Shown in pieces: positions 30,665 to 49,893 of a stretch of 64,000 nt of DNA. The notes beneath the pieces were generated by a model. It was not told where the DNA came from and did not search any database. It was given only the letters and a program-made list of their open reading frames with translations. The position numbers and the translations under genes were made by a program. Position 1 is the first letter of the stretch. Each line of letters begins with the position of its first letter. Source of the stretch: Nitrososphaeria archaeon (GTDB lineage: Archaea > Thermoproteota > Nitrososphaeria > JACIWG01); assembly GCA_050011875.1 (NCBI GenBank), contig JBEKIG010000015.1:32001-96000 (forward strand), given 5' to 3'.

Positions 30665-30763
30665 TGGACCAGGCGGGATTCGAACCCGCGACCTCACGGA
30701 TGCAGTCCGGAAAACTTCTTTGGAAGTCTTTAACCGTGCATTCTACCCCTGAACTACCGGCCC
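30665..30763 (-). tRNA. tRNA-Ala(TGC) with a 27-nt intron at position 33/34 (30705-30731)
   Basis: G3:U70 acceptor stem GGGCCGG/CTGGTCC; removing AAAGACTTCCAAAGAAGTTTTCCGGAC restores CACGG-TT TGC AT-CCGTG; BHB-like motif. Confidence 0.9.
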
Positions 30764-41774: not shown

Positions 41775-42149
41775 TTAGATGTACCGTTTAATTAGAGAAG
41801 GAAACTCTTCTAAGTGAAGGACAGAGCCGCCGCCGATTTTATATACCTCCTTTCTATACCATAAATCATATTTTATACCTCTTACACTGAACTTCGATAC
41901 CAACCTCTTACAGATAGACCAACCTTCCCTATCATTATCAACCAATATTATGACCTTTGAGTAGGAACGAGCCAACTGAAAAAGGTCGACGTGATTTGAT
42001 TTATGGCTGTATAAATATGGCTCCCCAACCACCCCTAACTCATCTAAGGCTTTCGCATCGTTTGGTCCTTCAACTACGATCAACGCATTGCTCTTGATTT
42101 CATCATTAAGGGCCTTTATGAGGTCAATAAGCCTTTCTAGTTCAACCAA
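41775..42149 (-). CDS. Small stand-alone TOPRIM domain protein
   Basis: VVEGPND..AL, ILVDNDREG; start moved to TTG 42149 because the upstream part overlaps a structured RNA. Confidence 0.8.
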   Translation of the reverse strand: MVELERLIDLIKALNDEIKSNALIVVEGPNDAKALDELGVVGEPYLYSHKSNHVDLFQLARSYSKVIILVDNDREGWSICKRLVSKFSVRGIKYDLWYRKEVYKIGGGSVLHLEEFPSLIKRYI

Positions 42150-42177
42150 CTTTTTTCTGCTGAACTTTGGTCGATTA

Positions 42178-42347
42178 GAATGTACCCCGCCTCTGAACGG
42201 TTTTGGACCATCTGAGCCTTGTAAAGGCATTTCACCAAACCTCTTTATGCGGGGCTTTGACATCCGTCTGTTGCGTCGCTGGGTTAACCCTATGCATCAT
42301 TAGATCAGCTAGGGCCGTCGCCACGCTTTTACGACGGATGTCAACCC
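42178..42347 (-). ncRNA. Two-unit H/ACA-type guide RNA
   Basis: Hairpin with CTGA-TCTA-ATGA K-loop followed by ACA; second hairpin GCCCCGC/GCGGGGT followed by ACA about 15 nt from the pocket top; TATA-like element upstream. Confidence 0.75.
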
Positions 42348-42391
42348 TCTGAAACGACCTGATAGGATAAAAAGTTTTCTTAATCATTTCA

Positions 42392-44029
42392 TCATTTCGA
42401 AAGTAACTTTGTCAGGTTGATTTCTAGTGCGGTTACAGGATTTCTTAAGGAAGACTGAGAAATGTATAGAGGGGACACCTCTCCGAGTACGCCGATATAT
42501 GCGCCATCCTCGTAGATCGAGGCGCAGCGGCCGCTGATAAAGTAATCGTGTGATGAAGCATTCATCTTACAGTTCTTTACTCCCAAGTAATCAAGGATTG
42601 AAAAGGCGGTCGATTTAATTTCCGTAAACGTTGTCTCAGAATGAGATATCATAGAGGATACCTTAACGTTTTCTACTATTTCCTGACCTCCTTCCCTAAG
42701 TTCGAAGGAACGCCCTATCTCAAAAATTTTCTGAGGATACTGTTCATGAACGTTCGATGATAGTGTCTGCAAAAGTTGGGGGATAACGGAACATCTGAGT
42801 ACATTGTATTCTTGTGTCTTAGAGTACTCTACCTCTATCAGCGAAGACGAAAAAGGCTGCTGTAGTTCTTTATTTGAAAGATAAAAGTTCATGACTTCTA
42901 TGAATCCTAAACCGATCAGACAAAGACGGACATCTTCAACCTTTTCTTTGGCTTTCAATGGCTTACCCTGCTGTGGCAGACGAAGTTCAAGCGGAGTGAT
43001 TTTATCGTATCCGTAGCCGTAGCCAACCTCCTCTATAAGGTCAACTTCATGTAAGATATCGATTCTATACCTTGGAACGGACACCTCTATCAGGTTTCCT
43101 TTCTTTAAAGAGCGCATGTTGACCTTTTTCAGCAAATTTATCGTTTCATCAAAATCTGTCGTAACGCCTAAGATTCGTCTTATTTCGTCAATTTTAAGGT
43201 ACATTTTTTTCGGAGCCAACACTGGGCTCTCGAATGATCTTTCAGGTCTGACTATCTTTATCTTATAGACAGAAGCACCGTAGTCTATTAAGGTTGTAGC
43301 CAGCAAGGCCAGCGCATCCTCAACCGGAGAAAGCTCGGTTCCCGTTACGTCGACAAAGAGGTTATTGGTTCTTTCGGTCAGAACTGTTACATTTCCATTG
43401 ATTATCGGCGGGAGTGAGAGAACCTGATCCAAGGAGTCCTTCAATATCGGAAAAATGTTTTTTAAAGAAAGAAGGTTTCCATAATGAACACCCTGTTCCG
43501 TCTGTTTTAAGATTTCTTCGACTGACAAAGGGGAAGTGCCATTTAAGGGTGTAAACTTGAAACCTGCATTTTCAGTTGTGTAATAGATTGGTGGAACTAT
43601 TCTTGACGCATCATGTAAACCTATGGCAAATTTTCTCCTTTTTCTCCCAATACCGTTGTGAAGGTCTTCCTGGAAGGATATGAGCTCCTTCAGGATAGAT
43701 TCGGAGAAATCTAGCTTAGCAAACAGTCCAAGTATATACGGTCTAATCGCTTCTACACTCTTATCTACATTTACTCGGATATCGTAAGCTGGTAAATCGT
43801 ATTCCACCTTCGTCTCTTCTCCAAAGTTAAGATAATTCAATGCCTTAGCGATACCGGCAGGAGACCCATAATCGGGACGATTTGGGCTGTATTCGACCTT
43901 GACTTCGTCATTATTCGAGTCTTCGATATCTAATCCGATATAAGGTAAAAGCTCTAAGATTTGGCCGCTCGAAAGAGACTTCTTTAGGAATGAATTAAAC
44001 CTGTCGTATCTAATAGTTAGTACGGGCAT
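42392..44029 (-). CDS. pheT: Phenylalanine--tRNA ligase beta subunit
   Basis: PNRPD, FQEDLH..IGRKRRK.AIGLHD, LSLPPIIN, RIDILHEVDLIEE. Confidence 0.96.
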   Translation of the reverse strand: MPVLTIRYDRFNSFLKKSLSSGQILELLPYIGLDIEDSNNDEVKVEYSPNRPDYGSPAGIAKALNYLNFGEETKVEYDLPAYDIRVNVDKSVEAIRPYILGLFAKLDFSESILKELISFQEDLHNGIGRKRRKFAIGLHDASRIVPPIYYTTENAGFKFTPLNGTSPLSVEEILKQTEQGVHYGNLLSLKNIFPILKDSLDQVLSLPPIINGNVTVLTERTNNLFVDVTGTELSPVEDALALLATTLIDYGASVYKIKIVRPERSFESPVLAPKKMYLKIDEIRRILGVTTDFDETINLLKKVNMRSLKKGNLIEVSVPRYRIDILHEVDLIEEVGYGYGYDKITPLELRLPQQGKPLKAKEKVEDVRLCLIGLGFIEVMNFYLSNKELQQPFSSSLIEVEYSKTQEYNVLRCSVIPQLLQTLSSNVHEQYPQKIFEIGRSFELREGGQEIVENVKVSSMISHSETTFTEIKSTAFSILDYLGVKNCKMNASSHDYFISGRCASIYEDGAYIGVLGEVSPLYISQSSLRNPVTALEINLTKLLSK

Positions 44030-49552: not shown

Positions 49553-49672
49553 AGGCGCCAGCACCACTGCTTCGCGACGGCTTCTGCACATCACTAACGC
49601 AATGGCGTGATATGGTTTGACTTCTGGGATCTGACGAGACCAGGTCGAGCCCATAACACTATGGCCGGCTAA
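49553..49672 (-). rRNA. rrf: 5S rRNA (stand-alone)
   Basis: Folds into helices I-V: GCCGGC/GCTGGC, GTGTTATGG/CCATATCAC, CCTGG-TCTCGTCAGATC-CCAGAAG, CCATTGC/GCAGTGG; ends approximate. Confidence 0.9.
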
Positions 49673-49763: not shown

Positions 49764-49893
49764 GGGGCTGTCGTCCAGCTAGGGAGGACAACGGGCTCCA
49801 GAACATATATGGTATATTGACTACAAGGATGATGTAGTTTTGGAGCTGGGTGAAGAAACCCGTAAGCCGTGGGTTCAAGTCCCACCAGCCCCA
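49764..49893 (+). tRNA. tRNA-Trp(CCA) with a 56-nt intron at 37/38 (49802-49857)
   Basis: GGGGCTG/CAGCCCC acceptor stem, ACGGG-CT CCA G|A-CCCGT after intron removal, GTTCAAGTC T-loop. Confidence 0.93.

Follow-up and report, generated by a model that had tools for sequence, protein, structure and literature searches.

A Probable Double-Hairpin Box H/ACA Guide RNA With a Leader-Hinge Helix and Two Predicted 23S rRNA Targets, Encoded Upstream of a TOPRIM Gene in Nitrososphaeria

What occupies the short interval between pheT and a TOPRIM-domain gene in a Nitrososphaeria archaeon? The question is raised by a 64,000-nucleotide (nt) stretch of contig JBEKIG010000015.1 (assembly GCA_050011875.1), hereafter the window, in which two hairpins of H/ACA type can be read on the minus strand at 42344-42181, the first of them enclosed by a helix of 12 base pairs (bp), between pheT (stop codon at 42392-42394) and an open reading frame (ORF) with a TOPRIM domain. 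An earlier note had proposed a two-unit guide RNA here, and rereading the sequence recovered every feature that it described, on the minus strand and at the same coordinates. We put at roughly 85% the probability that the locus is a double-hairpin box H/ACA guide RNA with a leader-hinge helix and two predicted targets in 23S ribosomal RNA (rRNA). It is most likely a real small noncoding RNA, kept across Nitrososphaeria, that would guide two pseudouridines in the large rRNA. The locus is an RNA gene and not a product of chance, as evidenced by its conservation in relatives and its covarying stems, and it appears to encode an RNA of about 165 nt with putative ends near 42345 and 42181. Coordinates refer to the whole window, the RNA features lie on its minus strand, and labels beginning with f, g, G, and L are handles for families, genera, genomes, and loci.

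The fold itself goes beyond chance, since the 176-nt minus-strand stretch reaches -67.6 kcal/mol (z = -5.0) and none of 200 shuffles did as well; the plus strand of the locus gave z = -3.8. The unit 1 hairpin (42273-42326), defined by sequence, fold, and alignments of 9 and 23 sequences, begins with a 7-bp lower stem, GCGUGGC/GCGACGC (42326-42320 with 42279-42273), which carries one G·G mismatch here and is perfect in G003 and genus g2. In the free RNA, the resting pocket consists of GACGG (42319-42315) and UUAACCCA (42287-42280). Above it, the upper stem (42314-42308 with 42295-42288) is made of 5 bp, a bulged base, and 2 bp, with CCCTA (42314-42310) paired to TAGGG (42292-42288) so as to close CTGA-TCTAAT-GATG. 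In this segment, UGA (42307-42305) and GAU (42298-42296) face each other as U·U, G·A, and A·G pairs around the loop UCUAAU (42304-42299), forming a canonical K-loop. The unit 1 ACA box (42269-42271) lies in the internal loop that separates the lower stem from the outer helix, 16 nt from the upper stem, or 14 nt if U42287-U42286 pair with GG. The pocket strands given in the earlier note are correctly placed but two bases too long on each outer side: G42321-C42320 pair with G42279-C42278 in the free RNA as the top of the 7-bp lower stem, and these two pairs would open for the full 8+7 pairing with rRNA.

The unit 2 hairpin (42184-42255), delimited in the same way, has a 7-bp lower stem, GCCCCGC/GCGGGGT (42255-42249 with 42190-42184), and a pocket formed by AUAAAGA (42248-42242) and GUUCAGAG (42198-42191), which read ATAAAGA and GTTCAGAG as DNA. 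Its upper stem (42241-42235 with 42206-42199, A42204 bulged) leads to a K-turn, in which G42233-A42232 stand opposite G42209-G42208, and to an apical stem (42228-42224 with 42220-42216). The unit 2 ACA box (42181-42183) is invariant, probably marks the 3' end region of the small RNA (sRNA), and is separated from the upper stem by 15 nt. The outer helix joins a 5' leader strand, TTGACATCCGTC (42333-42344; also written UUGACAUCCGUC), in perfect pairing to a hinge strand, GACGGATGTCAA (42257-42268; also written GACGGAUGUCAA), leaving A42256 as the sole spacer before unit 2. Facing the unit 1 ACA across the internal loop is the strand GUAAAA (42327-42332), which is A-rich and semiconserved, with variants AUAAAA, AUAGAG, AGACAU, and AAAAAU in the host family and AGAGCAG in family f5.

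Conservation was examined at several depths. A 321-nt blastn query recovered the region from 8 of the 9 remaining host-family genomes and from none of 31 genomes outside that family (0/31), the latter result being superseded by the covariance models described below. In the more distant family members, DNA similarity is limited to the part that starts within unit 1 and reaches the second ACA, ending at 42180-42181. In alignment A1, which comprises nine family sequences under a hand-drawn structure of 45 pairs, 92.4% of 393 cells are paired, compared with 87.9 ± 0.7% in shuffles (0/500 reached the observed value) and 29.9 to 43.6% when partners were slid by 1 to 3 columns. Both sides change in 13 of the 45 pairs, including 6/12 in the outer helix and 4/7 in the unit 1 upper stem. 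Covariance model R1, built from these nine sequences, matched 34 of 151 genomes sampled from the class, and model R2, built from 23 full-length matches (alignment A3), matched 116 of the 151 and 104 of the 111 high-quality ones. Alignment A3 was fitted to the model and thus leans towards the structure; in it, 90.2% of 920 cells are paired (shuffled, 66.6 ± 1.0%; slid, 27.9 to 44.6%), and both-side changes affect 37 of the 45 pairs, among them every one of the 12 in the outer helix. Covariation of the stems in relatives had been named in the earlier note as a check on its proposal, and the stems do covary in both alignments, albeit with counts that are not independent across relatives.

By the R2 matches among high-quality genomes, the RNA is near-universal in the class. 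Matches were found in 80/81 genomes of f5, the largest family, and in 8/9 of f1, 9/9 of f2, 8/8 of f6, 2/2 of f10, 3/3 of f11, and 3/3 of f12; they were few in f3 (2/14) and missing from f4 (0/1), f7 (0/17), f8 (0/2), and f9 (0/1). In many of the weaker matches (f2, f12, and genus g10 of f6), unit 2 alone is present, preceded by a short, unrelated hairpin. When the search was widened to a sample of the phylum, 41 of 151 genomes gave an R2 match. Four loci from outside the class (L067, L069, and L070 in f23 and L068 in f13) have the unit 1 hairpin with the same pocket letters and ACA, flanked by a leader-trailer helix of different sequence, and others have the unit 1 hairpin only or the unit 2 hairpin only. 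At locus L036 (G115:C1:1285006-1285254), within the class sample, two matches adjoin, one opening with a unit 1 hairpin and the other consisting of unit 2 only.

As judged from its sequence, the RNA has the stems, ACA boxes, spacing, and K-loop or K-turn that define an archaeal H/ACA RNA. Both units consist of a lower stem, a pocket, and an upper stem, with helices that are 88 to 99% paired in the 23 sequences and with both-side changes in 5/7 and 7/7 pairs of the two unit 1 stems and in 1/7 and 7/7 pairs of the two unit 2 stems. The ACA boxes of both units are invariant in 9/9 family sequences, and that of unit 1 is also in upper case in the R2 consensus. The unit 1 pocket letters GACGG and ACCCA are invariant or near-invariant in the 23 sequences, and GA...UGA of the K-loop is invariant in the nine. 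Within the host family, the GA on the 5' side and the AUG on the 3' side of the unit 2 K-turn are invariant; the fourth letter is A in 6/9, G in the host and a genus mate, and U in one, such that the 3' strand reads AUGA in most relatives and AUGG in the host genome. Eight nt precede the G·A pairs on the 5' side of both upper stems, the same count as in SL1 of sR-h45, the general distance being 9 to 10 (accessible text of PMC7075261). Moreover, the spacings of 15 nt in unit 2 and 14 to 16 nt in unit 1 agree with the rules given in the accessible parts of two papers, namely, 14 to 15 nt from ANA to target in archaeal H/ACA guides (PMC2377435) and n+15 (PMC7075261).

The protein partners that such an RNA would need are encoded elsewhere in the genome: Cbf5 (400 bits), Nop10, Gar1, and L7Ae were all found above curated cutoffs. 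L7Ae would bind the unit 1 K-loop and the unit 2 K-turn, and Cbf5-Nop10-Gar1 would bind the lower stem and ACA of each unit. Upstream, a TATA-like box, TTTTTATC (42366-42373, minus strand), lies about 25 nt before the outer helix and is a probable promoter. A-T-rich boxes stand at a similar distance in relatives (AAAACTTTTTATCC or ATATATAT, conserved in f1), and UUAAUAUUU is found 20 to 26 nt upstream of the RNA in other families. Transcription probably starts at the outer helix, with the box as the promoter of the sRNA. Also, two peat metatranscriptome runs each yielded one 151-nt contig over 42180-42327, with 4 differences; these are read-length contigs for which DNA carryover is possible. 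Neither run covered the flanks (41900-42179 and 42328-42500), which is not evidence of absence, and the contigs stop at 42180, just past the unit 2 ACA. Such RNA-library contigs show no ends, strand, or level and offer only a weak hint of expression.

If the locus encodes a guide, then its pockets should find partners in the organism's own rRNA. Bipartite complementarity was scanned in the host 23S, and approximate Escherichia coli numbers were assigned by alignment to the E. coli 23S, with offsets of +3 and +4 calibrated on landmark positions. Unit 1 pairs 8+7 with GCUGGGUU-UAGA-CCGUCGU, a segment that the earlier note had guessed and that is indeed present in the host 23S. In a permissive scan (G·U allowed, 1 to 5 unpaired bases, offsets) of both strands of the 2.64-Mb genome, only two sites allow at least 15 pairs with unit 1, of which the other is rich in G·U pairs, and the exact target pattern occurs once in the genome. 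The unpaired UAGA corresponds to approximately E. coli 2586-2589, and unit 1 would thereby place the third U of UUUA (GGGUUUAGA motif) in the peptidyl-transferase ring, at about U2586, at the catalytic site.

The second guess of the earlier note, CUCUGA-CUC-UCUU, likewise occurs in the host, in helix 69, where it forms 6+4 pairs with the host unit 2 guide and leaves 3 bases unpaired. Two sites in the 23S allow at least 10 pairs with the host guide, and taken alone this number is not significant. With the class-consensus guide, GGUCAGAG...AGA, the fit is to CUCUGAC-UC-UCU and leaves the canonical two bases unpaired; the genome has 10 copies of this pattern, and the single one in the 23S lies in helix 69. 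There, the unit 2 pocket would pair with the loop and the 3' strand and present the U after CUCUGAC, at about U1921: its 3' guide covers the equivalents of 1914-1920 as paired bases, and the U at ruler position 15 is that near 1921. Both pseudouridines are thus predicted. No convincing site for either unit was found in the partial 16S (848 nt), which was recovered only as the first 828 model positions (G000:C45:2863-3710), near a contig end.

The presence of the RNA can also be compared with the base at its predicted helix 69 site. A 21-nt helix 69 pattern, with at most one mismatch, was found in 96 of the 151 class genomes, and the site is U in 88 and C in 8 (five in f7, two in f3, and one in f4). 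Model R2 matched 85 of the 88 U genomes (84/87 without G131, which is flagged unpublished) and none of the 8 C genomes. A second scan, with filters relaxed and E ≤ 1, of five among the eight C genomes gave no match (0/5), though diverged guides could escape such a scan; all five encode Cbf5 and Nop10 (5/5 each).

Several observations weigh against the reading of the locus as a two-target guide RNA. Unit 1 leaves 4 target bases unpaired (5 in f5), compared with the canonical 2, and its ACA stands directly before a helix, which is atypical. In the host, the second pair of the unit 2 K-turn is G·G and not A·G. At the permissive setting, 14,681 sites on both genome strands match the host unit 2 guide equally well, and because such matches are common, the unit 2 assignment rests on the class consensus and on co-occurrence. 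The co-occurrence, in turn, has three U genomes without an R2 match (G078 and G084 in f7 and G057 in f8), and the C genomes fall in only three families (f3, f4, and f7) and therefore represent few independent events. The E. coli numbers 2586-2589 and ~1921 depend on the landmark positions used and are approximate. Finally, Rfam 15 at gathering score gave no match at the RNA locus in a scan of the whole window, and the one match on the minus-strand RNA is a weak one to the C/D-type family sR49, on the unit 1 K-loop (E = 0.17; 18.8 bits, with gathering at 50).

That last match belongs to a set of three weak C/D-type matches (minus strand, two; plus strand, one) that were returned, with no H/ACA family, when Rfam was searched at E ≤ 10 over 42050-42450. 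The unit 1 K-loop, as CUGA-loop-AUGAUG, does resemble the D'/C' pair of archaeal C/D sRNAs. A C/D sRNA would also carry a terminal box C (RUGAUGA) and a terminal box D (CUGA), both at a distance of 12 nt from the D'/C' pair. At those places the RNA has AAGCGUGGC and CAGC, and a C/D reading was rejected because these terminal boxes are absent. On the plus strand, a match to a nematode C/D snoRNA at 42355-42415 (E = 0.13; 19.8 bits, with gathering at 70) covers the last pheT codons, the pheT stop, and part of the spacer between pheT and the RNA, and is likely due to chance.

The outer helix is an extra element that the accessible descriptions of this RNA class lack. The earlier note had described the unit 1 ACA as caged, and this description is accurate: the box is followed by a helix and not by a free tail or hinge, which is atypical, and the cage is conserved in the alignments of relatives, with the ACA lying in an internal loop in every family that possesses unit 1. 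The helix is 12 bp long here, 9 bp in genus g2, and 5 to 8 bp in other families. From one family to another its strands are unrelated in sequence, and both-side changes affect 6/12 of its pairs in nine sequences and 12/12 in 23. It ends 0 to 1 nt before the unit 2 lower stem, with no spacer in genus g2. The 5' leader pairs with the hinge after the first ACA in a helix of 5 to 12 bp, leaving the ACA in an internal loop, and we propose that this helix would act as an architectural clamp that fixes the two particles relative to each other and would also shield the 5' end of the RNA. A bulge-helix-bulge processing site was considered and rejected, as the helix has no bulges.

The leader itself offers a different idea, in that GGGUUGA-CAU-CCGUCGU (42331-42349, minus strand) complements the unit 1 pocket with 7+7 pairs and resembles the 23S target. 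This mimicry is common to the closest genera and absent in genus g2 and other families, and so the leader was rejected as a conserved pseudo-substrate. A role of the helix as a switch or pseudo-substrate is less likely than one as a clamp because the similarity of the leader to the rRNA target is not conserved. A rival reading is that the H/ACA fold and its bound proteins are as proposed and that unit 1 serves mainly as a chaperone of rRNA folding or assembly, or as a regulated and mostly closed guide. Such a role could be signaled by the helix around unit 1 and by its oversized loop of unpaired target bases, of which 4 to 5 are retained class-wide, with GACGG never extending over AGA; by the internal-loop position of the ACA wherever unit 1 occurs; and, in the host genus, by the leader that complements the pocket. 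However, a target with four unpaired bases, UNUN, is modified by SL2 of sR-h45 with an ACA present (accessible text of PMC7075261), and UNN is functional (accessible text of PMC2377435). The ruler distance of 14 to 16 nt is kept too, and the leader mimicry is confined as described above. We therefore consider a primarily chaperone-like or regulatory unit 1 to be improbable.

The downstream gene raises the question of whether the structure belongs to a message. The Toprim domain of the ORF is recognized by Pfam at E = 3.6e-10, and the short form of the gene (41775-42149, minus strand) has a TTG start at 42149-42147 and encodes 124 amino acids (aa) plus the stop. Two ATG codons in the same frame could serve as other starts, one within unit 2 (42230-42228) and one in the outer helix (42263-42261), the latter beginning an ORF of 162 aa. 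This outer-helix ATG is present in 5/9 family members and the unit 2 ATG in 9/9, and from the unit 2 ATG the frame runs open as far as the TOPRIM core in every one. A canonical start near TTG 42149 is found in 6/9 and is missing in G005, G003, and G006, which leaves 3/9 without another usable start; translation in the host family may begin inside unit 2. Codon-position entropy is flat inside the RNA (0.38/0.43/0.47), weakly periodic over the 10 codons after the ACA (0.87/0.91/1.23), and coding-like farther downstream (0.91/0.44/1.16, and then 0.48/0.33/1.16 in the TOPRIM core). NCBIfam PRK04017 models (125 to 151 positions) align from residue 1 to 6 of the short form, and in f10 and f6 the downstream ORF opens only past the RNA, so the extension lies outside the protein family. 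We conclude that the 162-aa ORF very probably starts too far upstream and correct the gene call. The claim of the earlier note that the ORF track mistook the RNA for a TOPRIM extension is supported in part, by the protein profiles and the flat codon entropy and qualified by the unit 2 ATG in 9/9 relatives.

Could the element instead belong mainly to the TOPRIM mRNA, as a structured 5' leader that binds L7Ae and regulates in cis, and not be a free guide? The TTG start lies just 31 nt past the unit 2 ACA, the host family has no T-run after that ACA, an in-frame ATG lies inside unit 2 in all nine family members, and the adjacency of RNA and TOPRIM gene is kept in f1, f10, and f6. Nevertheless, in f5, the RNA precedes a different gene and is still present in 80/81 genomes, and its most conserved part is the rRNA-matching pocket letters, for which a leader has no need. 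The RNA-library contigs, which cover the sRNA only, add a weak point in the same direction. We regard an mRNA leader as highly improbable. In the five f5 loci inspected (L024, L027, L028, L031, and L035), the RNA is followed by a conserved ORF of about 140 aa that begins ...YWL(A/V/C)KQEPS...WDG(V/I)HNNLA(L/I)KH and may encode a PUA-like or EVE-type domain. That the stretch is simply an N-terminal coding extension of the TOPRIM gene with incidental folds, as the frame open from 42263 in the host and from the unit 2 ATG in 9/9 relatives might suggest, is scarcely credible given compensatory changes in 37/45 pairs, flat codon-position entropy, retention of the RNA where no ORF covers it, and TOPRIM profiles that lack the extension.

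A more far-reaching combination can be formulated for the guide RNA, namely, that the leader-hinge helix is an ancient, conserved H/ACA module of the phylum and that, in the host family, the 3' hairpin doubles as the start region of the TOPRIM gene. We think it unlikely that both parts hold together. If they did, the helix would stack on hairpin 2 and unite two single-hairpin particles into one rigid bipartite particle, an archaeal solution independent of the eukaryotic H-box hinge, and one sequence would serve the host family as both guide RNA and coding sequence.

Other RNA genes were seen as well. An Rfam scan detected the archaeal signal recognition particle RNA in the window. Two tRNA matches, at 30665-30763 (99 nt) and 49764-49893 (130 nt), are probably intron bearing, and the latter adjoins the 5S rRNA gene (49553-49672), which is separate from the 23S gene; the 23S gene lies on the same contig, outside the window.

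No H/ACA guide RNA from Nitrososphaeria was found in Rfam 15 or in the literature, the coverage of which was incomplete and does not amount to proof. Comparisons with sR-h45, Pab40, and Afu4 were made by published text descriptions, accessible in part. Among these, Haloferax sR-h45 (PMC7075261) is alike in several respects. It has two hairpins, the 5' one of which guides the third U of UUUA in the peptidyl-transferase region of the 23S (U2605 in Haloferax, preceded by UU and followed by A), and the 3' one of which guides helix 69. It too has a sheared G·A pair after eight bases on the 5' side, and one of its pairings is atypical, with four unpaired target bases. However, these four bases belong to the helix 69 hairpin in sR-h45 and to the peptidyl-transferase hairpin here. 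In helix 69 it guides modification at the counterparts of E. coli 1915 and 1917, and the site predicted here is ~1921, so the host RNA does not share the 1915/1917 sites. Furthermore, the 56-base linker of sR-h45 may form a pseudoknot, and its single-stranded hinge carries an H box, AUAGCU, whereas the hinge of the host RNA is paired with the 5' leader and ends 0 to 1 nt before unit 2. The linker pseudoknot, proposed in the same paper to join both stem-loops, is the nearest analogue of the outer helix. A leader-hinge helix is not described in the accessible text, figures excluded, of PMC7075261, PMC2377435, PMC7991803, or PMC11077068.

The multihairpin guides Pab40 and Pf7 of Pyrococcus and Afu4 of Archaeoglobus, as far as the available text of PMC2377435 describes them, share the ANA box, the K-turn or K-loop, and the spacing of 14 to 15 nt. 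The expected target of motif 2 in Pf7 and Afu4 is a position pseudouridylated in Haloarcula, and motif 3 of Pab40 addresses a helix 69 position conserved in most organisms. These RNAs differ in having three motifs and upper helices of 5 to 6 bp, and the accessible text mentions no leader-hinge helix. From the same phylum as the host, sR148 and related RNAs of Sulfolobus islandicus are associated with Cbf5 and produce helix 69 pseudouridines at sites modified in eukaryotes (accessible text of PMC11077068). [quoted passage not shown] The six H/ACA RNAs of S. islandicus are all described as single guides, and no pseudouridine at the unit 1 site is listed in the accessible part of that paper. Since the 23S sites mapped there are the equivalents of E. 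coli 1917, 1923, and 2457, both of our predictions would be new for the phylum, as far as that text extends.

Eukaryotic H/ACA snoRNAs share the two-hairpin plan, hairpin-hinge-hairpin-tail with an ANA after hairpin 1 and a 3' ACA, but they lack K-turns and have a single-stranded H-box hinge, unlike the two L7Ae-type motifs and the double-stranded hinge seen here. Helix 69 is modified at a position near 1921 in eukaryotes, and yeast 2264 is presumably modified under the guidance of snR3. By the numbering in Table 1 of PMC11077068, in the part accessible, the predicted helix 69 site lies four bases past the equivalent of yeast 2260, which is yeast 2264. The two predicted pseudouridines would lie at functional centers of the ribosome, and neither Sulfolobus nor Haloferax is reported, in the accessible texts, to modify the helix 69 one. 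The RNA also provides two natural test cases, one for Cbf5 recognition of an ACA box that has a helix on either side and one for a target loop with four bases unpaired. Like sR-h45, Pf7, and Afu4 as their texts describe them, the host RNA joins a peptidyl-transferase unit to one for helix 69; it differs from them in its leader-hinge helix, in the four unpaired bases of unit 1, and in the predicted helix 69 position.

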